Part shown: positions 5,989 through 58,456 of the stretch, piece by piece
Layout of the letters: each line of letters begins with the position of its first letter
Numbering within the stretch: position 1 is the first letter of the stretch
Source of the DNA: Clostridia bacterium
GTDB lineage: Bacteria > Bacillota > Clostridia > Oscillospirales > SIG627
Length of the DNA: 58,456 nucleotides
Assembly (NCBI GenBank): GCA_017414535.1
Contig: JAFQMA010000015.1
Coordinates: forward strand, 1 to 58,456
Direction: 5' to 3'
Made by a program: the position numbers and the translations under genes
Notes under the pieces: model-generated
Database searches by the model: none
Seen by the model: the letters and a program-made list of their open reading frames with translations, nothing else
What the model was told of the DNA's origin: nothing

Positions 5989-6122
5989 GATAAAATCCTC
6001 CCGTTCTTTTTTGTATATGAAGGCTTTCCTTCACCTCTATTATAGCACCGCGGCAGAGCTTGTCAAGCAAGGAAAAAATATCAATTTTCCCATACAAGGA
6101 ATATCAATTTTTATCACTTTTC

Positions 6123-6151
6123 TTGACTTTGCCCTCCACCACCCGTATAGT
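6123..6151 (+). promoter_or_regulatory. Sigma-A-type promoter
   Basis: TTGACT, 17-nt spacer, TATAGT, upstream of the cytidylyltransferase gene. Confidence 0.55.
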
Positions 6152-6206
6152 AAAAAAACGTCAAACGAAAAAAGCTTTTGAGAAATATCGTTCATAGGAG
6201 AAAAAC

Positions 6207-6923: not shown

Positions 6924-6943
6924 TCCTTTTCACACTTTTTGTG

Positions 6944-6979
6944 AAAGCCTCTCAAAGGAGAGGCTTTCTTCTTTTTTTT
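6944..6979 (+). terminator. Intrinsic terminator
   Basis: AAAGCCTCTC-AAAG-GAGAGGCTTT hairpin followed by a T-run. Confidence 0.8.
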
Positions 6980-7023
6980 CGCGAAAAAAACTTTGAAAAA
7001 AATCGTTTTTTTCTCTTGTTTTA

Positions 7024-7053
7024 TTGACATTCCTTCCTATTATAGTGTAGAAT
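7024..7053 (+). promoter_or_regulatory. Putative promoter of the adhesin gene (about 165-nt structured 5' UTR follows)
   Basis: TTGACA, 18-nt spacer, TAGAAT. The UTR contains several hairpins, e.g. CAGTG-CAGATC-CACTG just before the RBS. Confidence 0.45.
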
Positions 7054-7221
7054 TATGATAGCGAATAAGAGAATGCGGTACTGTACCTATTTTTGCTTAT
7101 TCAACGCTTTCCTTCCCTTATATAGGGGGCAGTGAAAAGCTTTTGACCCATAGGCGGCCTTGGATCGAAGGTTCGCCTCCTCCCCTGTTCCTCAGTGCAG
7201 ATCCACTGAAAGGAGACTTCT

Positions 7222-10200: not shown

Positions 10201-13200
10201 ACCAACCGCGCCAAGGACGCAGGCCGCGTGGTGATCACCAAAAAGGTGGCCCATCCCTTCGGGGAGGGAACCGTCGTTCCCACCAATCTGAAGTTCGCCT
10301 TTATCGCTGCCATCTTTGTAAACGGCACGGCCTACGCCAACCAGCCCGTAGAAACCAGCCACGGCAGCTTCACCACCGACTATCTCGGCCAGATCATCTT
10401 TGCGCTGGGCGCAGACGATTCCATCTCTATCAACGGCCTGCCCAACGGCGCAGAGGTACAGGTATTTGAGGTCGATATGCCTCAGGGCTTCCGTGCCGAC
10501 AAGGACTCCGACTCCGCCATCACCACCTACGGTGAGGTGGAGGAGCTGGTATTCACCAATACCTACGAGCCCCGCAGCATCAACGGCTCTCAGGTCAAGA
10601 TCCACGGCACCAAGTATCTGGACGGCCGTCTCTGGCAGGATTTCGACGCTTACACCTTCCGTCTCCAGTATTGGAACGGCATCAGCTGGCAGGTGCTGGC
10701 AGGCGGCAGTGAAAACGTCGCTACCAAGGCCGATCCCACCTTCAACCTCTCCGACGTATTCGCAAGCTTCAACTTCGATCACGAGGGAAGCTACCGCTTC
10801 TGGATCGTAGAGGAGGAGGGCGAGCTGGGCGGCATCACCTACGATAAGTCCGTACGAGAATTTATCGTTACCGTGGAGGACAACTGGAAGGGCGTCTACG
10901 AGATCGCAGACGTTTCCTCCGCCTCCGCTCAGGTCACCGTGACCGAGACTCCCGCGGCAAGCGGCACCGAATACACCGTCAACACCGGCTTTACCAACCG
11001 CTACTCCACCGGCACCACCTTCGTGGATCTGAGCGGTGAAAAGACCCTCGTAGGCGACGATCTGGCGGGCTACGTAGGCGAAAACGGCTTCGGCTTCGAG
11101 CTTCATACCGCCGTAATGACCTCGGGCGGACTGCAGCAGGATCAGCTGATCTACACCGCACATCTGAACGATGAGGGCAAATTCACCTTCGATCACAACT
11201 ACGTCGGTCATCTGGTCTTCGATCAGCCCGGCACCTACTACTTTATCGTGCGCGAGGCTGTCATCGGAAGCGATCCCCTGATGAAATTCGATCCCGCCCT
11301 TTACGAGATCACCGTTGTCGTTACCGACAATCTGGTGGGCGGTCTGGAAAACACCGTAGCCGTGACCCGCGTTACGGCCGGCGGCAGCACCACCGCTGAC
11401 AAAGCAAGCCTCAACTTCACCAACGAGCGCCTGCCCAAGGCCGTGCAGATCCGACTGCTCGGTCATAAGAATTACAACTTGACCCTCCCTGCCGATAAAT
11501 TCACCTTTGATCTGTACAAGGCGACCCTCTCCGGCTCCACCTATACCGCCGAGGGTAACGCTCTTCTCTCTGCCACCAACCGGGCAGACGGTGCCTTCCT
11601 GCTGGAGGACGGCGCAAGCTCCTCTCATCTGGTCTTCACCAAGGCCGGTGATTATCACTTCATCGTGAAGGAGCGTCTCCCTGCGGGAGTCAGTGCACAG
11701 GATCCCACCCTGAACGGCATCACCTACGATACCCGTGAGTACGGTCTCACCGTGCGCGTCACCGACGGCATCAGCCCCACGGGCAGAGCCATCCTCATCT
11801 ATGAGCTTTTGGTGAACGGTGTTCCGGGCGGCTCCATCACCTTTGATAACCGCTACGGCGCATCAGGCGAGATCACTCTCTCCGGCGAAAAAACGCTGGA
11901 CGGCAAGACCCAGGGCACCGAGGCCTTTACCTTCGAGCTGTATAACGCAAGCGTTTCCGGCTCTACCGTGACTCTCGGCTCTCTGATCGACTCCAAGTCT
12001 CCCGTGGGAGGCACCTTCACCTTCAAGGCTCTGCACTTCGCCTCTCTTGCCGACGTGGGCGAGCACTACTTTGTGATCCGTGAGAGGATCCCCGCAGGTG
12101 CCAATGCCGCCCATACCTACAAGGGCGTCACCTACGATGCAAGAGAGTATCTGGTGAAGATCACCGTCACCGATAACGGCGACGGCACCCTGAAGACTGA
12201 AAAGACCGTAACTCTGAACGGCGCTCCCGCCGAGGTCCGTTTTGAGAACACCTACGCCATCACTGCCGAGACCCGCGTTCCCGTCAGCGGCGAAAAGGGC
12301 GCCGAGGACTTCACGCTGAAGGACGGCGATTTCTCCTTTGCCATCTATAACGGCAATGTAGACGGTCAAGGCAAGGTCACGGCCGACGGCACCCCCATTG
12401 AGACCGTCAAGAACGTAGGCTCCGCCTTCTCCTTCACCGATCTGAAGTTCGATTCCCTCACCGACGTGGGTGACCATTACTTCGTGATATGCGAGGTAGT
12501 TCCCGACGAGGCCGATGCCAACGGCATTTACAAGGGCATCCTCTATGACAAGAGCGAATTTGTTCTGAAGGTCACCGTGACCGACAACGGCGACGGCACC
12601 CTGAAGGCTGTGCCCACGCTCACCAAAAACGGCACCGCCGCCTCCCTCCGCTTTGAAAACGCTTACCGCATCACCACCGCAGGTGCCATCACCGTCGGCG
12701 GCGAAAAGAAGCTGGAGGACAAGACCCTTGCCGACGGCGTTTATACCTTCGAGCTCTACAAGGCACAGAAGGACGGTCAGGGCAAGCTTGCCATTGTAGG
12801 CTCCGCCATCGATACCGACATCAACAAGGACGGTAAATTCACCTTCGATACCGTCACCTTCACCTCTCTGGAGGACGTGGGTATTCACTATTTCGCCGTG
12901 AAGGAGCGCATCCCCGCCGCCGCACAGGACAATGCCCATCTGGGCGTTCTGTACGATGCCAGAACCTACTTTATCACCGTGACCGTCACCGATAACGGCG
13001 ACGGCACCCTGGCCGTTACCTCCGCCACCTCCGTGGAGGGCGAAAGCGCCGCCAAGATCGAATTTGTCAACAAGTACGGCGTCATGACCCCTGTGGAGAT
13101 CACCCTGGAGGGTGAGAAGACCCTGGACGGCGCGGCCGCTCCCGACGGTAAGTTTACCTTCGGTCTGTACAAGGTAAGCGTCACCGCTGCAGGCGATCCT

Positions 13201-19941: not shown

Positions 19942-20118
19942 GTGATATTGCAAACGATCGTTTGCAGTGATATTTTTGCCTTGCAGCAAAAGTGGTATCG
20001 AAACCTAACGGTTTCAGTGATATTATATTCGCCCATTTAACTGTCCGAAGGACAATATCACTATGCGTAGCATAATATAACTGCGCAGCAATATCACTCG
20101 CCGCAAGGCGAATATAAC
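19942..20118. repeat. Phased 7-mer / mini-hairpin array (GTGATAT x4, then ATAT(C/A)AC x4)
   Basis: GTGATAT at 19942, 19967 and 20017, and GTGGTAT at 19992, give an exact 25-nt period with 18-nt palindromic spacers. ATATCAC at 20055 and 20091. ATATAAC at 20075 and 20112. These right-hand boxes are separated by 9-14-nt hairpins. Confidence 0.8.
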
Positions 20119-20148
20119 TGAGGCACCTTCCTTATGGAGGGTGCCTCA
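20119..20148. terminator. Strong 13-bp-stem hairpin adjacent to the right terminal repeat
   Basis: TGAGGCACCTTCC-TTAT-GGAGGGTGCCTCA, followed by TTCGGTCTCTTTTTTT. Lies downstream of the fur-family gene on the minus strand. Confidence 0.55.
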
Positions 20149-23655: not shown

Positions 23656-23674
23656 ACTAAAATAACGTAAATGC

Positions 23675-23913
23675 GGTGAAAAAGTGTGCCGCCTTTTCGA
23701 AAAGCTCGATCAGAGAGAGTCGTCACCGGCTGAAAGCGACTTGGGTGGGAGAAGGCGTGCGTTTCCCTTTGGAGCACGGCGGAGGAAGCACAGTAGTCCG
23801 TCGCGGCTGACCCCGTTACAGGTCGTACGAGTTGCCAAGGCAAGACCTTGGAATTCAGGTGGTATCGCGAAGCTATATGCTCCCGTCCTGAAGGATGGGG
23901 GCATTATTTTTTT
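23675..23913 (+). promoter_or_regulatory. T-box riboswitch leader of pheST
   Basis: AGAGAG bulge (23712-17). F-box CCGTTA (23813-18). T-box AATTCAGGTGGTATCGCGAAG (23852-72). Terminator CTCCCGTCC-TGAA-GGATGGGGG plus U-run (23880-23913). I could not place the specifier codon confidently by eye. Confidence 0.85.
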
Positions 23914-23929
23914 GGAAAGGTGACCGATT

Positions 23930-24955
23930 ATGCAAGAAAAAATCAATCTGATCCGCAGTGAGATCCTGGAAAAGATCGACAGCTTTGATTCCTCCCGCGC
24001 GCTGTACGAATTCCGCAAGCTCTTTCTGGACAATAAGGAAGGAAAGATCTCCCTTCTCATGAAGGGCCTCAAGGACGTGCCCAAGGAGGACCGTCCCGCT
24101 GCGGGCAAAAGCATCAACGAATTAAAGAACTGGGCCCTCTCCCTCTTTGAGGAGTACGACGCCCGCATCCACAAGCTGGAGCTGGAAAAGAAGATCGCCG
24201 GGGAGGCCGTGGACGTGACCGAGCCCGCCGTCAAGAGAAGGGCAGGCGCCCTGCACCCCAATACCATGGTGCAGAACGAGCTCATCGACATTTTTTCCGC
24301 CATGGGCTTTGAGATCTATGAGGGCAGTGAGATCGAGACGGATTACTATAACTTTACCGCCCTCAACACCCCCGAGGATCATCCCGCCCGCGATATGCAG
24401 GATACCTTCTATCTCTCCCCCGGCTTCCTCCTGCGCACCCAGACCAGCGCAGGCCAGATCCACGTGATGGAAAAGAGCCGTCCCCCCATTAAGATCCTCT
24501 CCCCCGGCAAGGTGTTCCGCAGTGACGATGACGCCACCCACTCTCCCATGTTCTCTCAGATGGAGGGTCTGGTGGTGGATCGCGGCATTTCTCTGTGCGA
24601 CCTGCAGGGCATGCTGGATCTGTTCAGCGAAAAGATCTTCGGTCAGGGCGTCAAGACCCGTCTGCGCCCCTCCTACTTCCCCTTTACCGAGCCCAGCGTT
24701 GAGGTGGACGTTTCCTGCTTCGAATGCGGCGGCAAGGGCTGTAAGCTCTGCAAGGGCACGGGCTGGATCGAGGTTCTGGGCGCAGGCGTTGTTAACCGCC
24801 ACGTTTTGGAAAATTGCGGCATCGACCCCGATGAATACACGGGCTTTGCCTTCGGTATGGGCGTGGAGCGTATCGCCATGCTCAAATACGGCATCAACAA
24901 CATCAAGGTCCTGTTCGAATCGGATACCCGATTTGCCGAGCAGTTCCGCGACTGA
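23930..24955 (+). CDS. pheS: Phenylalanine--tRNA ligase alpha subunit
   Basis: Class II motifs [18 protein letters not shown] and [14 protein letters not shown]. 341 aa. Confidence 0.95.
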
Positions 24956-24970
24956 GAAAGGAGAATCACC

Positions 24971-27388
24971 ATGCTTGCACCACTGAGTTGGTTAAAAGAA
25001 TACGTAGACATTGACGTTTCCCCCAAGGAATTGGAGGGAAAGCTCTTCTCCGCAGGCTTTGAGGTAGAAGAGGTCATCGAGCTGGGTAAGGATATCTCCG
25101 GAGTCGTGGTAGGCCTTGTGGAGGAATGCCGCCTCATTCCCGATACTCACATCAGCGTTTGCCGCGTCAACTGCGGCGATAAGGGTACCTTCCAGATCTG
25201 CTGCGGCGCCGATAACGTCAAGGCAGGCGGCAAGTATCCCACCGCACTGGTGGGCGCCACCGTGTACGCCACCGCCCGCGACCACGTGACCGTGGAGGGC
25301 GTCATGACCATTAAGGCAGGCAAGCTCCGCGGAGAGGAATCCTGCGGTATGCTCTGCTCCGGCATCGAATTGGGTCTTTCCGAGGAGCTGTACCCCGGCG
25401 CAGGCTATCTGGGTCTTCTGGTGCTACCCGAGGATGCGGAGCCCGGCGCGGATATTAAGCCCATCACGGGTCTGGATGAGGTCATCTTCGACATTGCCCT
25501 CACCGCGAACCGCCCCGACTGCCAGAGCATCATCGGCATGGCAAGAGAGGTGGCCGCCGTGCTGAAAAAGCCCCTGCGCATGCCCGCGCTGGATTATACC
25601 GAAAACGGCCGGGTCCCCCCCTTCTCCGTTACCGTAGAGGCACCCGATCTCTGCCCCCGCTATATCGGCCACGCCGTGCAGGACGTGAAGATCGCCCCCT
25701 CCCCCTTCTGGATGCAGCGCCGTCTGAAGCTGGTGGGACTTTCCGCCATCAACAATATCGTGGACATCACAAACTACGTCCTCAAGGAATTCGGCCAGCC
25801 CATGCACGCCTTTGACCGTCGCGATCTGACGGAGGACTGCATTGTGGTACGCCGTGCCAAGGAAGGCGAGGAGATCGTCACCCTGGACGAAAAGACCTTC
25901 GCTTTAAAGACCGATCATCTCGTGATCTGCGATAAGACCCGCCCCGTGGCGCTGGCAGGCATCATGGGCGGTCTCAATTCCGAAATTAAGGATACCACCA
26001 CCGAGGTGCTGTTCGAGGCGGCCAAATTCGCCCGCGACAGCATCCGTAAGACCGGCAGAAGCCTCGGCCAGTCCAGCGATTCCTCCGCCCGCTTTGAAAA
26101 GGGCGTGGACGAATGGGCCACCGTTATGGGTATGCGCCGTGCCCTCCATCTGGTACAGGAGCTGGGTGCCGGCGTTGTAACGAGCTACCATCAGGACGTG
26201 GCAGTCGATCCCGATCTGTCCCCCCGTCCCCTCACCGTATCCCGCAAGAAGATCGACGAGATCTTGGGCGTGACCGTGCCCGAGGAGGTAGCGCTGGAGA
26301 CCCTGTCCGCCCTGGGCTTTGAGCCAAAGATCGACGGCGATGCCCTCTCCGTGCTGGTGCCCCCCTACCGTGAGGATATCGACACCGCCGCGGCCGACAT
26401 TGCCGAAGAGATCATCCGCTCCTGGGGCTACGAGCATCTGGTGCCCCGCTTCCTGGATCTGGCCAGAGTTACCTCCGGCGGCCGCACCGAGGAGCAGAAG
26501 AAATCCGTCAAGCTCAAGGAGACCCTGTGCCGTCAGGGCTTCTCCGAATCCATTTTCTATTCCTTCTTCTCCCCCAAGGATCTGGATCTGATCCGTCTGG
26601 CTGAGGATGCTCCCGAAAGACAGGCCATTCGCCTGCTCAATCCCATCACAGAGGATCTGTCCCTCATGCGCACCACCCTGGCGCCCTCCATGCTCCGCGC
26701 GGTCATCCGCAACCTGCGCCGCGGCAATACCGAGGGTCGCTTCTTCGAGCTGGCCCGCATCTTCCGTGCGGAGAGCCTGCCCCTTACCGCCTATCCCGAG
26801 GAGAGAGACAGCCTTTGCATCACCGCCTTCGGTGACAGCGAGACCTTCTTCACCGTAAAGAGCGCCCCCGAGGCCATTGCCGATGCCTTCGGTCTGACCT
26901 TCCGCTACGAAAAGGACACCCGCCCCTATCTGCATCCCGGCATGACCGCCCGCATCACCTGCGAGGGCGACGAGATCGGCATCATGGGCCGTCTGTCCTA
27001 CGAGATCGCCGAGGAAATGAGCATCGAAAAGCCCGTGTTCCTCATCGAGATTGATTGGCAGACCTTGAAGGAAAAGTGCTGCCGCAAGCTGCGCTACGTG
27101 CCCATCCCCAAGTTTGCCCGCGAGGTGCGTGATCTGGCACTGGTTGCCGACGAGAAGCTCACCTGCGCCGAGATCGCAGACGCCATCCGGTCCTCCTGCA
27201 AATTCATCACCGAGGTCTCCCTCTTTGACGTCTATCGCTCCGAGGCCATTGGCAAGGATAAGAAGAGCATGGCCTTCAAGCTGGTCTTCACCCCCACCGA
27301 TCACGAATTCAGCTCCGATGAGATCGAAAAGTACGTGCAGAAGATCCTGAAGAAGCTGGCCTTCCTCTATCAGATCACCCTGCGCTGA
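24971..27388 (+). CDS. pheT: Phenylalanine--tRNA ligase beta subunit
   Basis: 805 aa. N-terminal tRNA-binding domain, B3/4, B5 and C-terminal FDX-ACB-like region. Follows pheS. Confidence 0.95.
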   Translation: MLAPLSWLKEYVDIDVSPKELEGKLFSAGFEVEEVIELGKDISGVVVGLVEECRLIPDTHISVCRVNCGDKGTFQICCGADNVKAGGKYPTALVGATVYATARDHVTVEGVMTIKAGKLRGEESCGMLCSGIELGLSEELYPGAGYLGLLVLPEDAEPGADIKPITGLDEVIFDIALTANRPDCQSIIGMAREVAAVLKKPLRMPALDYTENGRVPPFSVTVEAPDLCPRYIGHAVQDVKIAPSPFWMQRRLKLVGLSAINNIVDITNYVLKEFGQPMHAFDRRDLTEDCIVVRRAKEGEEIVTLDEKTFALKTDHLVICDKTRPVALAGIMGGLNSEIKDTTTEVLFEAAKFARDSIRKTGRSLGQSSDSSARFEKGVDEWATVMGMRRALHLVQELGAGVVTSYHQDVAVDPDLSPRPLTVSRKKIDEILGVTVPEEVALETLSALGFEPKIDGDALSVLVPPYREDIDTAAADIAEEIIRSWGYEHLVPRFLDLARVTSGGRTEEQKKSVKLKETLCRQGFSESIFYSFFSPKDLDLIRLAEDAPERQAIRLLNPITEDLSLMRTTLAPSMLRAVIRNLRRGNTEGRFFELARIFRAESLPLTAYPEERDSLCITAFGDSETFFTVKSAPEAIADAFGLTFRYEKDTRPYLHPGMTARITCEGDEIGIMGRLSYEIAEEMSIEKPVFLIEIDWQTLKEKCCRKLRYVPIPKFAREVRDLALVADEKLTCAEIADAIRSSCKFITEVSLFDVYRSEAIGKDKKSMAFKLVFTPTDHEFSSDEIEKYVQKILKKLAFLYQITLR

Positions 27389-48525: not shown

Positions 48526-49779
48526 TTACTTATTGTAGATTCTTCTGATATCCGTAAAGCCGTCCTCCATGAGGCGGTCGATCTGGAATTTGGCGTTCTT
48601 CTTCAAGGGCAGAACCGTGACACACTTGCCCTCGGCACGGAGCGCCGCGGCAGTAGCAAAGACCTCCTCCAGCTTCTCCTCAGAGGCACCGCCCTCCACC
48701 AGCATGGCCACACCGCCGTCGGCAAAAAGCTCGTCCTTGCCGTGCTCCTTGAGGATGGTGATAATGCGCTCAAAGCCAATGGAAAAGCCGCAGGCGGGGG
48801 TATTCTGTCCCGCGAACTTGCCGATCATTTCGTCGTATCTGCCGCCGCCGGCAATGGAGAAGTTGTATTCATCCAGCTTTACCTCAAAGATGGTGCCGGT
48901 GTAATAGCCCATACCGCGCACCAGCGTGGGATCGAACACGATACGTGCCGTCTCGCCGAGGCTCTTGGCGGTGCAGAAGAGAATGGTATCAAGGCCCTGA
49001 GCCACCCCTGCGGGGAGATGCTCCTCCAGCCCCGTGCAAAATTCGGCAACGGTAGCGGGAATGGGCTTATCGAACACGGCGGTATAGCGCTCCACAGCCT
49101 CCGCGGAAAGACCCATCTCGCAAAGCTCGGATCTGACGCCCTCCACACCGATCTTATCCAGCTTATCCAGAATGATAAAGACCTCCTCCAGGGACTCCTC
49201 GGGAAGCCCCGCACAGAGAGCCATGGCTCGGAGGATGCGGCGGTCGTTCACGTGAACGGTAAAGGAGGAAAGGTCGGTCTTACTGAAAATGGTCTCCAGC
49301 ATGCCCGCCGTGGCACCGATCAGCTCGATCTCCGCCAGAACGCTTCCGTCACCGAGGATGTCGATATCGCACTGGGTAAACTGGCGGAATCTTCCCTTCT
49401 GAGGCTGATCGGCACGCCATACGTTACCGATCTGCAACGCCTTAAAGGGCGCGGGAAGCACGGCGGAATTGGCCGCGTAAAAGCGGGAGAGCGGCAGGGT
49501 CAGATCGTAGCGCATGCCGCTGTCGGCCAGCTCGTCCCCCTTCTCCAGTGCACGGCTCAGCGCGGCACCGCGCTTGAGCACCTTGAAGATCAGCTTTTCG
49601 TTTTCGCCGCCCTGCTTGCCCGTCAGGTTCTCGATATGCTCCATGCAGGGAGTCTCGATCTCGCGGAAGCCGAAGGAAGCGTACTTCTCGCGGATCATGG
49701 CAAGCACCTTCTGGCGCAGTGCCATCTCACGTGGCAGAAAATCGTTCATTCCCTTTACGGGTGTCTTAACAAATCCCAT
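48526..49779 (-). CDS. hisS: Histidine--tRNA ligase
   Basis: GGAGGA RBS before MGFVKTPVKGMNDF. Motif 2 WRADQPQKGRFRQFTQCDIDILG. Motif 3 GGGRYD. C-terminal anticodon-binding domain. Confidence 0.9.
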   Translation of the reverse strand: MGFVKTPVKGMNDFLPREMALRQKVLAMIREKYASFGFREIETPCMEHIENLTGKQGGENEKLIFKVLKRGAALSRALEKGDELADSGMRYDLTLPLSRFYAANSAVLPAPFKALQIGNVWRADQPQKGRFRQFTQCDIDILGDGSVLAEIELIGATAGMLETIFSKTDLSSFTVHVNDRRILRAMALCAGLPEESLEEVFIILDKLDKIGVEGVRSELCEMGLSAEAVERYTAVFDKPIPATVAEFCTGLEEHLPAGVAQGLDTILFCTAKSLGETARIVFDPTLVRGMGYYTGTIFEVKLDEYNFSIAGGGRYDEMIGKFAGQNTPACGFSIGFERIITILKEHGKDELFADGGVAMLVEGGASEEKLEEVFATAAALRAEGKCVTVLPLKKNAKFQIDRLMEDGFTDIRRIYNK

Positions 49780-49811
49780 TCTGTCCTCCAAAAAATATAA
49801 ATTCTGTAAAA

Positions 49812-50768
49812 TCAAATACCGAAGATCTTGATCATGCTAAGAATCAAGGAGAAGGTCACCGGCAGAGTGATCAAGCTCATCACAAACGAAACGAAGGCGA
49901 CCTTTGCATTGTCCGAGGAATCAAAGCCGCACGCCTCGGGATAGACCACGCAGTTCAAGCCCACGGGCAAGCACGTGGTTACCGCGCAGAAAAAGAAGTT
50001 TTCGCCCCGCAGGCCGATCAGCCAAAACAGCGGCACCAGCAAGGCAGGAATGATCAAAAGCCGCAACAGACCGATAAAATACGGCCTTAAACTGCTGACC
50101 AATTCCTTCAGGCCGAAGGCGCCCAGCACCAGACCCGCCAGGATCATGGCGGCGGGGCTCATGCACGAGCCGGCCGTTTGCAGGGCATTGCCCAGAAAAT
50201 CGGGAAAGGTAACGCCCAAAAGACCGAATACACAGCCCAGCACGGACGAAAGATTGACCAGAGAAAACATGGACTTTTTCACGTTAAAGCTTCCCTTATC
50301 CGAAAAAAGCCCGTAGCCGTAGAAATTGCCCACGAAGCCGATGGGAATGCTGAAAATGATAAAGCGAGCCAGCATCTCATCACCGAATACGCCCTGAATA
50401 ACGGGGTAGCCGAAAAAGCCGTTGTTGGTGAAGGAGAGCATGTAGTAAAGGCTCTTTTTTTCAAAATCATTCCGTCCCAAAAGCTTTCCCAAGATGCGTC
50501 CAATCACGATGACCGTACCGCACCAAAGGCAGGACACCCCCAAAAGGCGGAGATTTGAGCCCAGCATTTCCAAGGTGAAGGTCTTGGTAACGTAATTGAG
50601 GGTATAGGCCGGTACAAAAACCAACGTGGCCAGCACCGAAACCATGGAAGAAGCATTCTCGGGAAGCCTTTTATAATGGCGAAGCACCCAGCCCGTCGCC
50701 ACGAACAGCAACAGCATGAAGACGTTTTTCAGCGTAAGAAGCGCGATCTGTCCGTCAAAAAGTGCCAT
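49812..50768 (-). CDS. AEC-family (auxin efflux carrier/malate permease-like) transporter
   Basis: About 10 TM helices, 318 aa. Collinear with the upstream paralog. Confidence 0.75.
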   Translation of the reverse strand: MALFDGQIALLTLKNVFMLLLFVATGWVLRHYKRLPENASSMVSVLATLVFVPAYTLNYVTKTFTLEMLGSNLRLLGVSCLWCGTVIVIGRILGKLLGRNDFEKKSLYYMLSFTNNGFFGYPVIQGVFGDEMLARFIIFSIPIGFVGNFYGYGLFSDKGSFNVKKSMFSLVNLSSVLGCVFGLLGVTFPDFLGNALQTAGSCMSPAAMILAGLVLGAFGLKELVSSLRPYFIGLLRLLIIPALLVPLFWLIGLRGENFFFCAVTTCLPVGLNCVVYPEACGFDSSDNAKVAFVSFVMSLITLPVTFSLILSMIKIFGI

Positions 50769-50777
50769 ATTACCTCC

Positions 50778-51743
50778 TTAAAGCACCGTCAAAACGCGAA
50801 TAACGGAAAAGGTCAAAGGCAAAAAAAGCAAGCTCATCAAAAAGGAAACAAAGGCTGTCTTTGCATTGGCCGAGGCATCAAAGCCATTGGCCTCGGGATA
50901 GACCACGCTGTTCAGTCCCACCGGCAGGCAAGAGGCCAACGAGCAGAAGAAAAAGGCTTCGCCGCGCAAGCCCACAAGGTAAAGCAACGGAACGGTGACC
51001 AAGGGAAGGCCAAACAGACGCACCGCGCTTACCAAATAGGCCTTGCCGTGGCAGACCAGCTCCTTCAACGGGAAGGCACCAAGCACCAGACCCGTCAGGA
51101 TCATGGCGCAGGGACTCATGCAGTCCCCCGTCACGGCGATCGCCTTTGAGGCAAAGGCGGGCAAATGAGCCGTCAGCCCCGTCAGCCCCAGCACCATACC
51201 GATCATGGAGCCCACGTTCACGGGAGCCAGCACCGCCCTTTTTACGCTGAAGGCGCTTTTTGTGGCAAAGAGGCCGCAGGCATAGAAATTGCCGATAAAA
51301 GCCACGGGAATACAAAAGATGATGAATCGTCCCAACAGCTCGTCACCGAATACGCCCTGTACCACGGGGTAGCCGAAAAAGCCCGTATTGGAAAAAGCAA
51401 AAATATAGTAAAGACTCTTTCTTTCAAAATCCGTCCTGCCCAGAAGCCGTCCCAAAAGCCGTCCCAAAAGAATGATGGCCGCACAAAACACGCAGGAAAC
51501 GCCCAGAATCAACAGATTTTGTCCCAGCATATCCACCGTGAAGGTATGGGCCACGTGATTTAAGTTATAGGCAGGCAAAAAGAGCGAGGCAACCAGTGCC
51601 GATACCGTGTGGGACGCATCGCCCGAAAGCATCCCGCTGCGGCGCAAAAAATAGCCGAGGAAAATAACTGCCAGCAGCACGGCTACGCTATTCAGTGTGG
51701 TAAAAGCCACCTGCAGATCAAACAGCTTTGCCAAAACGTCCAT
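50778..51743 (-). CDS. AEC-family transporter (tandem paralog)
   Basis: About 10 TM helices, 321 aa. GAAAGGAAG RBS. Confidence 0.75.
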   Translation of the reverse strand: MDVLAKLFDLQVAFTTLNSVAVLLAVIFLGYFLRRSGMLSGDASHTVSALVASLFLPAYNLNHVAHTFTVDMLGQNLLILGVSCVFCAAIILLGRLLGRLLGRTDFERKSLYYIFAFSNTGFFGYPVVQGVFGDELLGRFIIFCIPVAFIGNFYACGLFATKSAFSVKRAVLAPVNVGSMIGMVLGLTGLTAHLPAFASKAIAVTGDCMSPCAMILTGLVLGAFPLKELVCHGKAYLVSAVRLFGLPLVTVPLLYLVGLRGEAFFFCSLASCLPVGLNSVVYPEANGFDASANAKTAFVSFLMSLLFLPLTFSVIRVLTVL

Positions 51744-51898: not shown

Positions 51899-51927
51899 TT
51901 GACTTTGCCGTGATAAAATGCTAAAAT
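51899..51927 (+). promoter_or_regulatory. Sigma-A-type promoter of the Tyr T-box operon
   Basis: TTGACT, 17-nt spacer, TAAAAT. Confidence 0.65.
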
Positions 51928-51944
51928 AGATCATCTTTTTTTAA

Positions 51945-52182
51945 AAGCCGTGATGAGACCAAGTACCCGTTGGTTCCTCCTTTCAGAGAGCTGTCGGCCG
52001 CTGCGAGACAGCAAGGAGCCCCGTGGGGAATACAGCTCGGAGCTGCCCCGAGGAAATGCGGGGTCGGGATCGCCCGTTACAGCGCAGGGATTTTTCCCGC
52101 TGAGGCGGCCGCAGGGCCGTAAATCAGAGGTGGTACCACGAGATCATCGTCCTCTGCCGTAAGGCAGGGGACTTTTCTTTTT
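51945..52182 (+). promoter_or_regulatory. T-box riboswitch, tyrosine (UAC) specifier
   Basis: GUGAUGAG K-turn (51950-57). AGUA (51962-65). AGAGAG bulge (51985-90). Specifier loop GAA-UAC-A (52028-34). F-box CCGUUA (52074-79). T-box AAAUCAGAGGUGGUACCACGAG (52121-42). Terminator 52151-82. Confidence 0.85.
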
Positions 52183-52214
52183 CCCGCCGCCATTATGTTT
52201 TAAAGGAGTCCGTC

Positions 52215-53849
52215 ATGCCCATTACCGAATTTTTGGAAAGAAACGCCCGCCTCTACGGCAACGAAAGCGCCCTGGTGGAGCTGAACCCGTCCGAGGCACG
52301 GGATAATTCCGCCACCTGGCGGGAATATCGCCTGATCGAGACCACGGAGGGAGCACCCTACCGCAGAGAGCTCACCTGGCGCGATTTTGACCGCAGAGCA
52401 AACCGTATCGCCAACCTGCTTCTGTCCCGTGGCGTGCCCCGCGGCACCAAAGTAGCTATTTTGCTGATGAACTGTCTGGAGTGGTTGCCCATTTACTTCG
52501 GCATTCTGAAGGCAGGCTGTCTTGCCGTTCCCATGAACTTCCGCTATTCCTCCGAGGAGATCCGTTATTGCACGGAGCTGGCAGACGTGGAGATCATGGT
52601 CTTCGGCCCCGAATTTATCAGCCGCATGGATCCCATCGCAGGGGAGATGAAGGGCGTTCACACCTATTTCTTCGTAGGTCAGGGCTCACCCGCCTACGCG
52701 CAGGATCTATTGACCGTCATGAGCTTCTGCTCCTCCTCCGCGCCGCCCGTAGCTCTCGAGGATTCCGACCCTGCCGCCATTTATTTTTCCAGCGGCACCA
52801 CAGGCTTCCCCAAGGCGATCCTGCACGATCACGCGGCGCTGGTCTCCTCCTGCCGCACCGAGCAGAACCATCACGGTCAGAGCCGTGATGACGTTTTCCT
52901 CTGCATCCCCCCGCTGTATCACACGGGCGCCAAGATGCATTGGTTCGGCTCTCTTCTGTCCGCCTCCCGCGCAGTGCTTTTGCGCGGTGTCAAGCCGGAG
53001 TGGATCCTCCGTGCCGTCAGTGATGAAAAATGCACCATCGTGTGGCTGTTGGTTCCGTGGGCACAGGATCTTCTGGATGCCCTGGATGAGGGAGTCCTTA
53101 ACGCCGAGGACTATACGCTGGATCAGCTGCGCCTCATGCACATCGGCGCACAGCCCGTGCCCCCCAGCCTGGTACAGCGCTGGCTGAAGCGCTTTCCCCA
53201 CCATCAGTACGACACCAACTATGGCCTGTCCGAATCCATCGGCCCCGGCTGTGTCCATCTGGGCGTGGAAAACGTCCATAAGGTGGGCGCCATCGGCAAG
53301 CCCGGCTATCTGTGGGAGGCCGCCATTGTAGACGAAAAGGGCGAGAAGGTGCCTCGGGGCGAGGTAGGCGAGCTCTGTGTCAAGGGCCCCGGCGTCATGA
53401 AATGCTATTATAAAAACGAGGAAGCCACCCGCGAGGTGCTCCGCGGCGATTGGCTCTTTACGGGTGACATGGCCAAGGAGGACGAGGACGGCTTCATCTA
53501 CCTGGTGGACCGCAAGAAGGACGTGGTCATCTCCGGCGGTGAGAATATCTACCCCGTACAGATCGAGGATCACCTGAGAAGCTTTGATAAGATCAAGGAC
53601 GTGGCCGTCATCGGTCTGCCCGATGCACGCCTTGGTGAGATCTGCGCCGCCATCATCGAGATCAAGGAGGGGTTGACCTGCACCGAGGAGGAGATCCACC
53701 TCTTCTGCGAGAGCCTGCCCCGCTACAAACGCCCCCGCAAGATCTTCTTTGACAAGGTTCCCCGCAACCCCACGGGTAAGATCGAAAAGCCCGTCCTGCG
53801 GAAAAAATACTGCAAGGGCAGTCTTGTGGAAGCACAGATCAACAGCTGA
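52215..53849 (+). CDS. Adenylate-forming acyl-CoA ligase (FadD/ANL superfamily), substrate unknown
   Basis: AAAGGAG RBS. AMP motif YFSSGTTGFPKAI. GELCVKGPGVMKCYY, FTGDMA and PRNPTGKIEK motifs. Confidence 0.85.
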   Translation: MPITEFLERNARLYGNESALVELNPSEARDNSATWREYRLIETTEGAPYRRELTWRDFDRRANRIANLLLSRGVPRGTKVAILLMNCLEWLPIYFGILKAGCLAVPMNFRYSSEEIRYCTELADVEIMVFGPEFISRMDPIAGEMKGVHTYFFVGQGSPAYAQDLLTVMSFCSSSAPPVALEDSDPAAIYFSSGTTGFPKAILHDHAALVSSCRTEQNHHGQSRDDVFLCIPPLYHTGAKMHWFGSLLSASRAVLLRGVKPEWILRAVSDEKCTIVWLLVPWAQDLLDALDEGVLNAEDYTLDQLRLMHIGAQPVPPSLVQRWLKRFPHHQYDTNYGLSESIGPGCVHLGVENVHKVGAIGKPGYLWEAAIVDEKGEKVPRGEVGELCVKGPGVMKCYYKNEEATREVLRGDWLFTGDMAKEDEDGFIYLVDRKKDVVISGGENIYPVQIEDHLRSFDKIKDVAVIGLPDARLGEICAAIIEIKEGLTCTEEEIHLFCESLPRYKRPRKIFFDKVPRNPTGKIEKPVLRKKYCKGSLVEAQINS

Positions 53850-53887
53850 TCCTTCGCATCTTTATTTTCAGAAAGAAGGTTTTACTT

Positions 53888-55444
53888 ATGACTGCACAAT
53901 TTTTCACCGGCGCTCTGGTTGTGGTCTTTTTCGCACTGATGATCGCCGTGGGCCTCTATTGCCGTAAGCACGCCGTCAGCGTGGACGGCTTCGTTCTGGG
54001 CGGGCGAAGCGTAGGCCCCTGGCTCACCGCCTTCGCCTACGGCACCTCCTATTTTTCCGCAGTGATCTTCGTGGGCTACGCAGGCCAGTTCGGCTGGCAG
54101 TTCGGCGTGGCAAGCACCTGGATCGGTCTGGGCAACGCCTTCATCGGCTCCCTTTTGGCCTGGAACATCCTCGGTCGCCGCACCCGTATCATGACCCAGC
54201 ATCTGTCCTCCAAGACCATGCCCGATTTCTTCCAGAAGCGCTATAACTCCAATGCGCTGAAGATCGCAGCCAGTATTATCGTCTTTATCTTCCTCATTCC
54301 CTATACCGCTTCCCTGTACAACGGCCTGTCCAGTCTCTTTCAGGTAGCCTTTGCGATCCCCTACTGGGCAGTGATCCTTGCCATGGCCGTCCTGACGGGC
54401 ATTTACGTGATCTTTGGCGGCTACATGGCCACCGCCATTAACGACTTCATTCAGGGCATCGTCATGCTGGTGGGCATCGTGGCCGTGATCGTAGCCGTCA
54501 TGAACCAAAACGGCGGCTTCATGGACTCCATGGGCGCCCTGGCTGAGACCACAGGCTGGGAATACACCTCCTTTGCCGGTCCCGATCCCCTGTTCCTCAT
54601 TGTGGTGGTGCTCCTCACCAGCCTCGGCACCTGGGGACTTCCCCAGATGGTAGGCAAATTCTACGCCATTTCCGGTGAAAATGCCATCAAGAAGGGCACT
54701 CTCATCTCCACTGTCTTTGCCGTGATCGTAGCAGGCGGCTGCTACTTCCTTGGCGGCTTCGGCAAGCTCTTCGTTTCTCCCGATGCCGTAGCCAAGGGCG
54801 GCTTTGACGTGATCGTCCCCTCCATGATCAGCACTCTCTCCCCCTACATCGTGGGCATCGTCATCGTGCTGGTGCTGTCCGCTTCCATGAGCACCCTCTC
54901 CTCTCTGGTGCTGACCTCCGCTTCCACCTTGACGCTGGACGTGGTGGTTCCCAACGCTAAAAAGGAGACCTCCGAAAAGAAAAAGATCCTCATCATGCGT
55001 CTCTTCATTCTGTTCTTCATCGTGCTCAGCGCCGTCATTGCCATCCTGAAGGACAGCATCTGGAAGGATTTCGTCTTTATCGCACAGATGATGGGCGTAT
55101 CCTGGGGCGCGCTGGCAGGCTCCTTCCTTGCCCCCTTCCTCTACGGTCTGTATTGGAAAAAGACCACCCGCGCCGCCGTTTGGACCAGCTTTGGCTTCGG
55201 CGTTGGCATGATGGTCGTCCAGCTTCTCATCTCCATGAAGGTGATCCCCGCCGTGGGCATCCTTTCCGTGATCTTTAGGAATTCTCTCTATTCCGGTGTA
55301 TTCGCCATGATGGGCGGCCTCATCCTGGTGCCCATCGTAAGTCTTTTCACGAAGAAGAGCCTTCCCGAGAATACCGAAGAGAAATTCGCCTGCTACGACG
55401 CCACCGTTTCCACCCCCGCCAAGAATGCGCTGGAGGAAAAATAA
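53888..55444 (+). CDS. Sodium:solute symporter (SSS) family transporter
   Basis: About 13 TM helices, 518 aa. PutP/PanF-like N-terminal pattern. 38 nt after the ligase gene with no terminator between. Confidence 0.8.
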   Translation: MTAQFFTGALVVVFFALMIAVGLYCRKHAVSVDGFVLGGRSVGPWLTAFAYGTSYFSAVIFVGYAGQFGWQFGVASTWIGLGNAFIGSLLAWNILGRRTRIMTQHLSSKTMPDFFQKRYNSNALKIAASIIVFIFLIPYTASLYNGLSSLFQVAFAIPYWAVILAMAVLTGIYVIFGGYMATAINDFIQGIVMLVGIVAVIVAVMNQNGGFMDSMGALAETTGWEYTSFAGPDPLFLIVVVLLTSLGTWGLPQMVGKFYAISGENAIKKGTLISTVFAVIVAGGCYFLGGFGKLFVSPDAVAKGGFDVIVPSMISTLSPYIVGIVIVLVLSASMSTLSSLVLTSASTLTLDVVVPNAKKETSEKKKILIMRLFILFFIVLSAVIAILKDSIWKDFVFIAQMMGVSWGALAGSFLAPFLYGLYWKKTTRAAVWTSFGFGVGMMVVQLLISMKVIPAVGILSVIFRNSLYSGVFAMMGGLILVPIVSLFTKKSLPENTEEKFACYDATVSTPAKNALEEK

Positions 55445-55449
55445 ATCTC

Positions 55450-55478
55450 TTGCCAAGCATCCGCCTATGCGGTAAAAT
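55450..55478 (+). promoter_or_regulatory. Internal sigma-A-type promoter before iorA
   Basis: TTGCCA, 17-nt spacer, TAAAAT. Confidence 0.5.
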
Positions 55479-55511
55479 ATAAGCAATCTCAAAAAAACGA
55501 GGTATTCACCT

Positions 55512-57233
55512 ATGAAAAAACTTATGTTGGGAAATGAAGCGGTAGCCCGCGGCCTCTTTGAGGGCGGCTGCACCTTCGTTTCCAGTTATCCCGGCACCCC
55601 CAGCACCGAGATCACCGAGGCCGTGGCCCGTTATAAGGAGGTTTATGCCGAATGGGCCCCCAATGAAAAGGTGGCCATGGAATCCGCCTTCGGTGCCTCT
55701 CTGGCAGGCAAAAGAGCCTTCTGCGGCATGAAGCACGTGGGCCTCAACGTTGCCGCCGACCCCCTGTTTACCCTGTCCTACACGGGCGTGAACGGCGGTC
55801 TCGTTATCGGTGTGGCAGACGATGCGGGCATGCATTCCTCTCAGAACGAGCAGGATTCCCGCCATTACGCCCGTGCCGCCAAGATCCCCATGCTGGAGCC
55901 CGCCGATTCCGCCGAGGCACTGGCCTTCACAAAGCTTGCCTTCACCCTGTCGGAGGAATACGATACCCCCGTGTTCATCAAAATGTGCACCCGCGTATCT
56001 CACTCCCAGAGCGTAGTGGAGGAGGGCGAGCGTGTTGAGTCCGTCAAGCCCTATAAGAAGGACCCCGCCAAATACATCATGATGCCCGGTAACGCCAAAA
56101 AGCGCCACCCCGTGGTAGAAGAAAGAACGAGAAGGCTCGTAGCCTTCGCCGAGGAGAGCGAGATCAACCGCGTGGAGAACGGCGCAGACCGCTCCATGGG
56201 CTTTATCACCTCCTCCACCTCCTACCAGTACGTGAAGGAGGCCGTGGGCGACAGATACCCCGTGCTCAAGCTCGGTATGATCTGGCCCATGCCCGAGCAG
56301 AAGCTCCGTGATTTCGCCGCCAAGGTAGAAAAGCTCTACGTGGTGGAGGAGCTGGACGGCTTTATTGAATCTCACCTCAATTCCTTGGGTCTTTCTCCCA
56401 TCGGAAAGGACGTCTTCTCCATTCTCGGCGAATTCAGCCAGAACACCGTCCGCGAAAATCTGGGCCTTCCCGTGCCTCAGGGTACCGTGGCAGAGGAGAA
56501 CGTGCCCCAGAGACCCCCCGTAATGTGTGCAGGCTGTCCCCACAGAGGTCTCTTCTACGTCCTTGCCAAAAACAAGATCACCGTGCTGGGTGACATTGGC
56601 TGCTACACCCTCGGTGCCGTGCCTCCCCTGTCCGCACTGGATTCCACCCTTTGCATGGGCGCCTCCGTTTCCGGTCTCCACGGCTTCGTCAAGGCCATGG
56701 AGGGCGCGGCCGACGGCAATACCGTGGGCGTCATCGGCGACTCCACCTTCATGCACTCGGGCATCACGGGTCTTGTGAACATCGCCTATAACAATTCCAA
56801 CGCCACCGTTATCATTCTGGATAACTCCATCACCGGCATGACCGGCCACCAGCAAAACCCCACCACGGGTCTCAATCTGAAGGGCGATCCCGCCTCCAAG
56901 ATCGATCTGGAGGCACTGTGCCGTGCGGTGGGCATCGAGCGCGTTACCGTGGTGGATCCTTACGATCTTGCCGCCACGGAAAAGGCAGTAAAGGAGGAGC
57001 TGGCCTCGGGCAAGCCCGGCGTCATCATCTCCCGCAGAGCCTGTGCTCTCCTCAAGTACGTCAAGCACCCCGGCCCCATCAAGGTGGATGCGGACAAGTG
57101 CCGCAGCTGTCGCGCCTGCATGAAGATCGGCTGTCCCGCCATCAGCATGCAAAACGGCAAGGCCGTCATTGATAACACCCTTTGCACCGGCTGCGGTGTT
57201 TGCACCCAGCTCTGCAAATTCGGGGCACTGTAA
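55512..57233 (+). CDS. iorA: Indolepyruvate:ferredoxin oxidoreductase alpha subunit
   Basis: 573 aa. TPP-binding region. C-terminal 2x[4Fe-4S] motifs CRSCRACMKIGCP and CTGCGVCTQLC. Confidence 0.88.
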   Translation: MKKLMLGNEAVARGLFEGGCTFVSSYPGTPSTEITEAVARYKEVYAEWAPNEKVAMESAFGASLAGKRAFCGMKHVGLNVAADPLFTLSYTGVNGGLVIGVADDAGMHSSQNEQDSRHYARAAKIPMLEPADSAEALAFTKLAFTLSEEYDTPVFIKMCTRVSHSQSVVEEGERVESVKPYKKDPAKYIMMPGNAKKRHPVVEERTRRLVAFAEESEINRVENGADRSMGFITSSTSYQYVKEAVGDRYPVLKLGMIWPMPEQKLRDFAAKVEKLYVVEELDGFIESHLNSLGLSPIGKDVFSILGEFSQNTVRENLGLPVPQGTVAEENVPQRPPVMCAGCPHRGLFYVLAKNKITVLGDIGCYTLGAVPPLSALDSTLCMGASVSGLHGFVKAMEGAADGNTVGVIGDSTFMHSGITGLVNIAYNNSNATVIILDNSITGMTGHQQNPTTGLNLKGDPASKIDLEALCRAVGIERVTVVDPYDLAATEKAVKEELASGKPGVIISRRACALLKYVKHPGPIKVDADKCRSCRACMKIGCPAISMQNGKAVIDNTLCTGCGVCTQLCKFGAL

Positions 57234-57248
57234 GAAAGGAGAAGCCAA

Positions 57249-57821
57249 ATGGAAACGAAAAACGTAATGATCGTAGGCGTAGGCGGCCAAGGCAGCCTTT
57301 TAGCCTCCAAGCTTTTGGGCAGACTTCTTCTTACCCGCGGCTATGATATCAAGGTATCCGAGGTCCACGGTATGAGCCAGCGCGGCGGATCCGTCGTGAC
57401 CTACGTACGCTTCGGCGACAAGGTCTATTCTCCCATCATCGATAAGGGCGAGGCCGATTTCATCGTCTCCTTCGAGCTTCTGGAGGCCGCCCGCTGGACG
57501 GAATACCTGAAGAAGGACGGCAGGATCGTAGCCAACACCCAGAAGATCAATCCCATGCCCGTCATCATCGGCGCCGCCGAATATCCCGAGGGCATTGAGG
57601 AGCACATCCGTGCCGCAGGCATCGCTCTGGACGCCTTCGACGCCCTTTCCCTCGCCGAGGAGGCAGGCTCCGCCAAGGCGGTGAACATCGCCCTCATGGG
57701 CAGACTTTCCAAATATTTCGACTTCTCCGAGGAGGAATGGATGCAGGCCATTGCCGATTCCGTTCCCGCTAAATTTTTAGAGCTGAACAAGAAAGCCTTC
57801 CTTTTGGGAAGAAACGCATAA
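57249..57821 (+). CDS. iorB: Indolepyruvate:ferredoxin oxidoreductase beta subunit
   Basis: 190 aa. IVGVGGQGSLLASK N-terminus. Follows iorA. Confidence 0.85.
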   Translation: METKNVMIVGVGGQGSLLASKLLGRLLLTRGYDIKVSEVHGMSQRGGSVVTYVRFGDKVYSPIIDKGEADFIVSFELLEAARWTEYLKKDGRIVANTQKINPMPVIIGAAEYPEGIEEHIRAAGIALDAFDALSLAEEAGSAKAVNIALMGRLSKYFDFSEEEWMQAIADSVPAKFLELNKKAFLLGRNA

Positions 57822-57845
57822 ACTGCAAAAAACAAGGAGAAAACA

Positions 57846-58456
57846 ATGAGAAAATATTACCAGCCCGAAATTGAGACCGCCTCAAGAGAGGAGATCCTTG
57901 CCCTCCAGAACGAGAGACTTGTGGCACAGGTGAAGCACGTTTGGGAAAACGTGCCCTACTATCGCAAGAAAATGGAGGAAAAGGGTGTGACTCCCGAAGA
58001 TATTAAGGGTGTAGCGGATCTTCACAAGCTCCCCTTCCTCACCAAGGACGACCTGCGCGAGGCCTATCCCTACGGCCTCATGGGCAAGCCTCTGAAGGAT
58101 TGCGTGCGCATCCAATCCACCTCCGGTACTACCGGCAAGCGTGTGGTGGCCTTCTATACCCAGCACGATATCGATCTGTGGGAGGATTGCTGCGCCCGTG
58201 CCATTATGGCCGCAGGCGGAACGGAAGAGGACGTTTGTCAGGTGTGCTACGGCTACGGCCTGTTCACCGGCGGCCCCGGCCTCAACGGCGGCTCTCACAA
58301 GGTGGGCTGTCTGACCCTGCCCATGTCCAGCGGCAATACCGACCGTCAGCTCCAGTTCATGACCGATCTGGAATCGACCATCATCTGCTGCACCCCCTCT
58401 TATGCCGGCTACCTTGCCGAAAGCATCCACGAGCGCGGCCTGCGCGATCAGATCAA
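57846..58456 (+). CDS. paaK: Phenylacetate--CoA ligase (3'-truncated by window edge)
   Basis: AAGGAG RBS. MRKYYQPEIETASREEILALQNERL...QSTSGTTGKRVV motif. The frame is open to the window end. Absent from the ORF track because it has no stop codon. Confidence 0.85.
   Translation, partial: MRKYYQPEIETASREEILALQNERLVAQVKHVWENVPYYRKKMEEKGVTPEDIKGVADLHKLPFLTKDDLREAYPYGLMGKPLKDCVRIQSTSGTTGKRVVAFYTQHDIDLWEDCCARAIMAAGGTEEDVCQVCYGYGLFTGGPGLNGGSHKVGCLTLPMSSGNTDRQLQFMTDLESTIICCTPSYAGYLAESIHERGLRDQI

Follow-up and report, generated by a model that had tools for sequence, protein, structure and literature searches.

Background

T-boxes switch genes on when a given amino acid is scarce and its tRNA is uncharged. 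Because uncharged tRNA turns the genes on, the cargo of a T-box should raise the supply of the cognate amino acid. In Bacillus subtilis, the T-box leader of tyrS has the specifier UAC and the UGGU bulge expected for a tRNA-Tyr with the discriminator base A73. Here we describe a T-box leader with the same specifier in contig JAFQMA010000015.1 of a Clostridia bacterium (GenBank assembly GCA_017414535.1). The stretch analysed, referred to as the window, covers 58,456 nucleotides (positions 1 to 58,456 of the forward strand). The leader stands near the end of the window, ahead of an operon that encodes an AMP-forming acyl-CoA ligase, a sodium:solute symporter (SSS), and an indolepyruvate (arylpyruvate):ferredoxin oxidoreductase (IOR).

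It has been known since the 1960s that rumen bacteria incorporate phenylacetate, 4-hydroxyphenylacetate, and indoleacetate into amino acids. In the reverse IOR reaction, arylacetyl-CoA, CO2, and reduced ferredoxin are converted to arylpyruvate and CoA, and transamination comes next. To our knowledge, this is the only reaction related to Tyr or Phe that joins an AMP-forming acyl-CoA ligase to an IOR. For Methanococcus maripaludis, genetic evidence documents the IOR-dependent use of aryl acids for aromatic amino acids (Porat et al., cited in PMC4162585), and the reverse IOR route has also been proposed for Methanobacterium and for the IOR of Bacteroides (PMC13285125). In the latter paper, from 2026, the AMP-forming ligase found beside the IOR of Bacteroides was assayed as an arylacetate-CoA ligase and a biosynthetic role was suggested. 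In Geobacter, a conserved leader exists 5' of iorAB-paaK and is listed under tryptophan biosynthesis (PMC2700814).

The operon in the window resembles the Bacteroides and Geobacter clusters in having an IOR beside an AMP-forming PaaK-type ligase; both of those have been suggested to serve biosynthesis. T-boxes, a second ligase of the ANL superfamily, and an SSS transporter are not reported there. With the M. maripaludis and rumen route the operon would share the arylacetyl-CoA ester, reductive carboxylation by IOR, and transamination. It differs from M. maripaludis in its bacterial (Oscillospirales-like) host, in an extra FadD-like ligase besides PaaK, in a dedicated transporter, and in its control by tRNA charging. 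The same metabolites (hydroxyphenylpyruvate, hydroxyphenylacetate or HPA, and HPA-CoA) occur in the catabolic clusters of Clostridium scatologenes and Clostridioides difficile (HpdDEFG-HpdJ-HpdK and iorAB-butK). Those clusters gain ATP by phosphotransacylase and kinase or by ADP-forming ligases, and they are induced by substrate or by SigL. In contrast, the ligases encoded here are AMP-forming, and induction would be by amino-acid starvation.

A tyrosine T-box leader ahead of the ligase gene

Positions 51941..52157 of the plus strand match the Rfam T-box family RF00230 over the full model (1-219) with 108.2 bits (gathering score 93, E 5.5e-23). The leader is far beyond chance because of this E-value and because homologous leaders are found before orthologous genes in 27 other genomes. 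Its parts follow one another in the order Stem I (K-turn, AG bulge/distal loop, and specifier loop), Stem II, IIA/B with the F-box, Stem III, and the antiterminator with its UGGU bulge. In the covariance-model alignment, the K-turn GUGAUGAG...AGUA, whose segment reads UGAUGAG...AGUA, and the AGAGAG box fall on conserved model positions. So do the F-box CCGUUA (52073-52078, plus strand) and GGUGGUACCACG, which is the T-box sequence and bulge of the antiterminator. The same alignment places the specifier codon UAC (Tyr) at 52031..52033 (plus strand), inside GAA-UAC-A (52028-52034). The conserved T-box sequence AAAUCAGAGGUGGUACCACGAG with the UGGU bulge is read at 52121..52142 (plus strand) both in the sequence and in the RF00230 alignment. 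This bulge is complementary to the tRNA 3' end ACCA (discriminator A73).

The leader ends in an intrinsic terminator on the plus strand, which consists of a 10-bp G+C-rich stem with a GUAA loop (hairpin 52149-52172) and the U-run TTTTCTTTTT reaching to 52182. The terminator hairpin alone has a folding energy of -20.5 kcal/mol (z = -7.2). The antiterminator, which bulges out 7 nt (UGGUACC), is weaker at -9.9 kcal/mol. The strand CGUCCUCUG is common to the two structures, serving as the 5' arm of the terminator and as the 3' arm of the antiterminator. This is the canonical layout of a default-off transcriptional T-box. Upstream, a consensus scan finds a sigma-70-type promoter-like site, TTGACT-17-TAAAAT, with TG ahead of the -10 element (51899..51927, plus strand, 10/12 matches). 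The site is also present in the same-species contig L082. If it is used, the transcript would start about 6-8 nt 5' of the T-box model start. The leader sequence is identical across independent contigs of the same species. A preliminary description of this DNA had named the TTGACT-17-TAAAAT promoter, the T-box landmarks in canonical order, the UAC specifier in GAA-UAC-A, the F-box, the T-box with its UGGU bulge, and a terminator whose 5' half can pair alternatively with the T-box strand. Each of these is borne out by the covariance-model alignment, the promoter scan, or the folding energies of the two structures that share an arm.

As an RNA, the leader is a typical T-box; what is unusual is its regulon. 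Like the B. subtilis tyrS leader and other RF00230 T-boxes, it has a Stem I with K-turn, specifier loop, and distal platform, followed by an F-box and a Stem III, and a UGGN-bulged antiterminator that competes with an intrinsic terminator, as in the transcriptional members of the family. Unlike the usual T-boxes, its cargo is an operon for an acyl-CoA ligase, a symporter, and an arylpyruvate:ferredoxin oxidoreductase rather than an aminoacyl-tRNA synthetase, a de novo biosynthetic pathway, or a permease alone. No T-box on iorAB, paaK, or an acyl-CoA ligase is reported in the full-text literature searched, and earlier annotation in RegPrecise or in Vitreschak 2008 is possible. The text of the Wels 2008 T-box survey and the supplements searched make no mention of CoA ligases or indolepyruvate.

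Organization of the operon

The first gene after the leader (52215..53849, plus strand) encodes a 544-aa AMP-forming acyl-CoA ligase of the ANL superfamily, with matches to PF00501 (254 bits) and PF13193. The ANL core motifs SSGTTGFPK (A3), YGLSE (A5), FTGDMA (A7), and PRNPTGK (A10) are readable in its translation. After a gap of 38 nt, the gene for the 518-aa SSS symporter follows (53888..55444, plus strand; PF00474, 175.4 bits, residues 35-429). A spacer of 67 nt separates it from iorA. It holds an internal promoter-like site, TTGCCA-17-TAAAAT (55450..55478, plus strand), which was found by the consensus scan and is kept in L082.

IorA (55512..57233, plus strand) and IorB (57249..57821, plus strand) are the alpha and beta subunits of IOR, and both meet their equivalog cutoffs: TIGR03336 with 695.9 bits against 650.9 and NF005325 with 279.6 bits against 230. 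They carry the expected thiamine pyrophosphate (TPP) and Fe-S domains, POR_N, TPP_enzyme_C, and Fer4 in IorA and POR (PF01558) in IorB. The last gene (57846..58456, plus strand) encodes a PaaK-type phenylacetate-CoA ligase and is cut by the window end after its N-terminal 203 codons. This 203-aa fragment scores 230 bits to positions 1-190 of TIGR02155. A full-length relative (in L006) scores 500.6 bits against a cutoff of 646.3, which makes it PaaK-like, below the equivalog cutoff.

In the same-species contigs L082-L085, PaaK is 432 aa long and is followed by the gene for a 143-aa ACT-domain protein and then by convergent genes. No convincing terminator was found by the scan between the operon genes, the 67-nt SSS-iorA spacer included. 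The only two strong plus-strand terminators of L082 are that of the T-box and, downstream of ACT, a hairpin of 13 bp. Therefore, the T-box, ligase, SSS, iorA, iorB, paaK, and ACT genes most likely form one transcription unit, which may also contain an internal promoter. From the promoter-like site ahead of iorA, iorAB-paaK-ACT probably receives some expression that is independent of the T-box. The preliminary description had already given the gene order, with the symporter 38 nt after the 544-aa ligase and no terminator between them, and with iorA, iorB, and a PaaK-like gene after a 67-nt spacer that has the TTGCCA-17-TAAAAT site and no terminator. All of this is present, and the operon now extends through PaaK and ACT to a terminator beyond the window end.

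About 1 kb past the position of the window end, the same-species contig L083 has a gene for a D-isomer-specific 2-hydroxyacid dehydrogenase (11355-12302, minus strand), convergent with the operon. In L082 the gene call for this dehydrogenase falls into two parts (94 and 221 aa), and the gene may be split or frameshifted there.

Conservation of the ligase cluster

A scan of one genome per species gave 80 ligase loci. The 80 orthologues are 68-79% identical to the window protein and belong mostly to Oscillospiraceae, Acutalibacteraceae, Ruminococcus, and Lachnospiraceae of gut or rumen origin. This is high conservation for an enzyme without an assigned function. In 43 of the 63 loci whose flanks are long enough, IorA is encoded no more than 5.5 kb from the ligase, and its start often lies 20-70 nt past the ligase stop codon. 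The SSS gene adjoins the ligase gene in 28 of the 80 loci; in L016, an MFS transporter takes the slot of SSS. The recurrent gene order is ligase-(SSS)-IorA-IorB-PaaK-ACT-(aminotransferase), and a class I/II aminotransferase is part of the cluster in at least six loci.

In individual loci, further elements lie between the ligase gene and iorA. In L067, two M42 aminopeptidase genes (5396-7427) lie between the ligase, which is controlled by a Tyr T-box, and iorA. From this arrangement, peptide breakdown might belong to the same Tyr-starvation unit. In L046, the ligase-iorA spacer contains matches to the TwoAYGGAY RNA motif (8701-8868, minus strand, and 9008-9076, plus strand).

T-boxes and specifier codons in related genomes

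Leaders in the relatives were found by motif and nhmmer searches, and a sample was confirmed with Rfam. A homologous T-box directly precedes the ligase or SSS-ligase in 27 of the 80 loci. When Stem I sequences are aligned, the codon column reads UAC in 21 loci as well as in the window and UUC (Phe) in six (L003, L004, L006, L021, L027, and L051). Specifiers of the 27 leaders are Tyr or Phe only, the first and third codon positions are invariant, and UAC and UUC are separated by a single A-to-U change. Two of the Tyr calls (L029 and L044) include a one-base insertion, with which another register is readable. The base 3' of the codon is C in many relatives, not the usual purine. The leaders of L021, L003, L069, and L027 score above the Rfam gathering threshold, and those of L013, L048, and L051 score 77-91 bits (E 4e-15 or better).

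Control is split in L013 and L048. In these genomes a Tyr T-box is found before the ligase (ligase-SSS in L048), and a separate Phe T-box is found directly before iorA. The two Phe T-boxes score 107.4 and 102.4 bits, above gathering.

The register of the codon column was checked with T-boxes of aminoacyl-tRNA synthetase genes. A second T-box leader in the window (23667-23893, plus strand; RF00230, 71.1 bits against the gathering score of 93, E 1.6e-15) precedes pheS (23930-24955, plus strand; Pfam tRNA-synt_2d) and pheT (24971-27388, plus strand; B3_4, B5, FDX-ACB). Its specifier is UUC (Phe), and the pheS leader of L053 reads UUC in the same column. For Tyr, the control is the leader at 14806-15087 in L009 (89.5 bits), which reads UAC in that column. 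The product of the gene after it (from about 15262) starts with a TyrRS-type N-terminus and the HIGH motif, as in tyrS. L009 has a ligase-SSS-IorAB-PaaK-ACT cluster without a T-box of its own, and the Tyr T-box and tyrS come immediately after the cluster.

The preliminary description had read the operon as a salvage route induced by Tyr limitation and had proposed looking for Tyr T-boxes at orthologous ligase-symporter loci. Such T-boxes exist, and comparative synteny together with the Tyr and Phe specifiers supports starvation-induced salvage as a prediction. The idea of a strictly Tyr regulon does not stand, given the Phe specifier in six loci. From the codons, the regulon would be described as Tyr/Phe. 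On a neighbour-joining tree of the ligases, those with T-boxes are scattered. The possibility that the Phe-specifier ligases form one clade, a pattern that might have pointed to specialised substrates, was rejected, as Phe arose at least four times on the tree. No T-box or substitute element was found upstream of the ligase when nine ligase-iorAB loci without a leader were scanned with Rfam.

Proposed mechanism and pathway

The leader is a Tyr-specific T-box attenuator that stands before a six-gene operon, and we consider it likely, though well short of certain, that this operon salvages arylacetates into Tyr and Phe by way of IOR. With tRNA-Tyr charged, the terminator would form and transcription would stop ahead of the ligase gene. 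When Tyr is limiting, the anticodon GUA of uncharged tRNA-Tyr would pair with the UAC specifier, and its free 3' ACCA would pair with the UGGU bulge. This pairing would stabilise the weak antiterminator, so that RNA polymerase could read into the operon; read-through would extend into iorAB.

Once the operon is expressed, the symporter, which is proposed to be an importer of the aryl acid, would bring in arylacetate. The FadD-like ligase, proposed to be a (hydroxy)phenylacetate-CoA ligase, would make the CoA thioester mainly of 4-hydroxyphenylacetate, and PaaK that of phenylacetate. IorAB with reduced ferredoxin would then carry out reductive carboxylation to 4-hydroxyphenylpyruvate or phenylpyruvate. 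Finally, an aminotransferase, encoded in the cluster in some relatives and presumably elsewhere in this organism, would produce Tyr or Phe. We infer both the substrates of the ligase and the symporter and the reductive direction of IOR in vivo.

Among the parts of this route, the ligases and IOR are encoded in the operon, and the aminotransferase is found in the cluster in at least six relatives and not in this operon. Induction by shortage of the end product would follow from the logic of the leader. The ACT-domain protein and the aminotransferase of the conserved cluster, together with the lack of catabolic markers, fit synthesis rather than fermentation. The split control in L013 and L048 suggests a division of labour in which the ligase leans to 4-hydroxyphenylacetate and PaaK to phenylacetate. 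This division is not strict, because six ligases are under Phe control.

Alternative explanations

Several observations weigh against the salvage pathway. A PaaK-type arylacetate ligase already exists in the operon and may by itself cover all arylacetates, so the model does not explain why a second ligase would be needed. The aminotransferase is absent from this organism's operon according to the same-species gene tables. The promoter-like site ahead of iorA could leave iorAB-paaK only partly under the control of the T-box. No tRNA-Tyr gene, for the GUA anticodon and A73, was found in the window or in the 60 loci L001-L060.

The homology of the ligase is also on the opposing side. It matches 108 NCBIfam models and is below the cutoff in all of them (the best is NF004837, 400 bits against 476), and no named subfamily (FadD long-chain, MenE, malonyl-CoA synthetase, 4CL-like, and others) is reached at NCBIfam cutoffs. 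Because no cutoff is reached, its substrate is not readable from homology. Among characterised enzymes, it is closest to ligases of the fatty-acyl, feruloyl, and malonyl-CoA types (E 1e-68 to 1e-55). Among solved structures, the best relatives are FadD5, FadD13, feruloyl-CoA synthetase, and malonyl-CoA synthetase. With FadD5 and FadD13 of Mycobacterium tuberculosis and with feruloyl-CoA synthetase, the ligase shares the ANL fold family and the core motifs (best structure matches E 1e-68 to 1e-62). Unlike the FadD ligases, it belongs to a conserved orthologue group of its own, spread across families of Clostridia and found in the context of IOR and Tyr/Phe T-boxes.

These similarities leave some room, in our view not much, for a ligase that activates another acid related to Tyr or Phe (aryl-lactate, arylpropionate, p-coumarate, or 4-hydroxybenzoate) for a route other than reductive carboxylation by IOR. 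Besides fatty-acyl ligases, the similarity reaches feruloyl-CoA synthetase and 4-coumarate-CoA ligases, and PaaK could already take care of the arylacetates. Moreover, the ligase is found without iorAB nearby in 18-20 loci, those of Ruminococcus flavefaciens and R. albus among them, which weighs against the salvage pathway too. However, the tight and frequent adjacency of ligase and IorA makes an IOR substrate the simplest product. A PaaI-like hotdog thioesterase adjoins the ligase in six loci, L009 (6339-6854), L023, L028, L047, L055, and L078; of the NCBIfam models, it scores best with that of PaaI (hydroxyphenylacetyl-CoA thioesterase), at 63 bits against a cutoff of 119. Genes for side-chain shortening or oxidation are not conserved in the cluster.

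Slightly less probable still is that the T-box mainly serves an importer of aromatic amino acids. The symporter would then take up Tyr or Phe, and the ligase and IOR would be co-transcribed for an unrelated reason. The SSS protein is below equivalog cutoffs and is most similar to PutP (195.8 bits against 515.5) and PanF (155.4 against 328). ActP and MctC, which transport carboxylates, are less close to it, and Tyr or Phe may be what it imports. Transporter genes are well known as targets of T-boxes (PMC2494555), and a T-box lies directly before SSS in four loci. Yet in about 12 loci (e.g., L027, L030, L032, L033, L037, L051, L013, L029, and L052) the T-box is straight before the ligase and no SSS is part of the unit. 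The two genomes with a Phe T-box directly on iorAB speak against a symporter-centred unit as well. In addition, SSS is kept between ligase and IorA also in loci that have no T-box at all.

It is improbable that the cluster is catabolic, with IOR oxidising arylpyruvates to arylacetyl-CoA in the fermentation of aromatic amino acids and the T-box irrelevant to the direction. IOR does work oxidatively in Clostridioides difficile, where iorAB-butK is under a SigL promoter (PMC7438776), and in Bacteroides the production of phenylacetate has been connected with it (PMC13285125). Nevertheless, inducing the breakdown of Tyr or Phe with uncharged tRNA-Tyr or tRNA-Phe would be counter-productive, and starvation-induced control therefore argues for synthesis, not fermentation. 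The AMP-forming ligases of the cluster favour thioester synthesis, and it lacks the phosphotransacylase and kinase or the ADP-forming ligases by which catabolic clusters are recognised. What accompanies the cluster is an ACT-domain protein and an aminotransferase.

Finally, although about two thirds of the orthologous loci do without a T-box, which also counts against the salvage regulon, it is very improbable that the leader is a decaying or non-functional relic and the operon effectively constitutive, in view of its full-length score above gathering, its intact conserved boxes, its strong terminator, and its identical sequence in independent contigs of the same species.

Implications

The comparative data suggest a T-box-controlled operon that would supply amino acids by aryl-acid salvage, with a new conserved ligase family. 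In a wider form of this proposal, for and against which the arguments are about evenly balanced, a widespread pathway gated by Tyr/Phe T-boxes would operate in abundant gut and rumen Clostridia (Oscillospiraceae, Acutalibacteraceae, and some Lachnospiraceae). It would import 4-hydroxyphenylacetate and phenylacetate and convert them to Tyr and Phe, and the FadD-like ligase would be the committed activating enzyme before IOR. If this is true, genes and regulation can be assigned to the reductive-carboxylation physiology of the rumen known since the 1960s. In this case the bacteria would consume, and not produce, the compounds from which phenylacetylglutamine and p-cresol are made. The T-box regulon would also gain two kinds of enzyme, acyl-CoA ligases and 2-oxoacid:ferredoxin oxidoreductases.

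IOR-type enzymes are now studied as sources of phenylacetate, 4-hydroxyphenylacetate, and indoleacetate, from which host phenylacetylglutamine and p-cresol derive. The direction of IOR matters for this reason, and the locus is relevant to which way IOR flux runs in abundant gut anaerobes. The Tyr/Phe T-boxes provide regulatory evidence for a biosynthetic direction of IOR clusters in many gut and rumen Clostridia. They also allow a specific function, open to experiment, to be proposed for a very conserved orphan family of ligases, and they point to the genes with which rumen bacteria build aryl acids into aromatic amino acids, a capacity that has long been known.

Neighbouring genes and other elements

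Two AEC/Mem_trans ('auxin efflux carrier' family) permease genes lie in tandem (50778-51743 and 49812-50768, minus strand) and diverge from the T-box operon. A strong promoter-like site is present at 51816-51789. The two permeases were considered as members of the module and rejected, as they are not conserved beside the ligase elsewhere. A hisS-like gene (48526-49815, minus strand) overlaps the second permease gene by 4 nt, and a hisS homologue is also present upstream of the T-box-ligase unit in L056.

Gut-1 RNA is a small RNA family of unknown function from gut metagenomes. The window contains a match to it (RF01706) at 20030-20120 on the minus strand, with 58.9 bits against a gathering score of 50.

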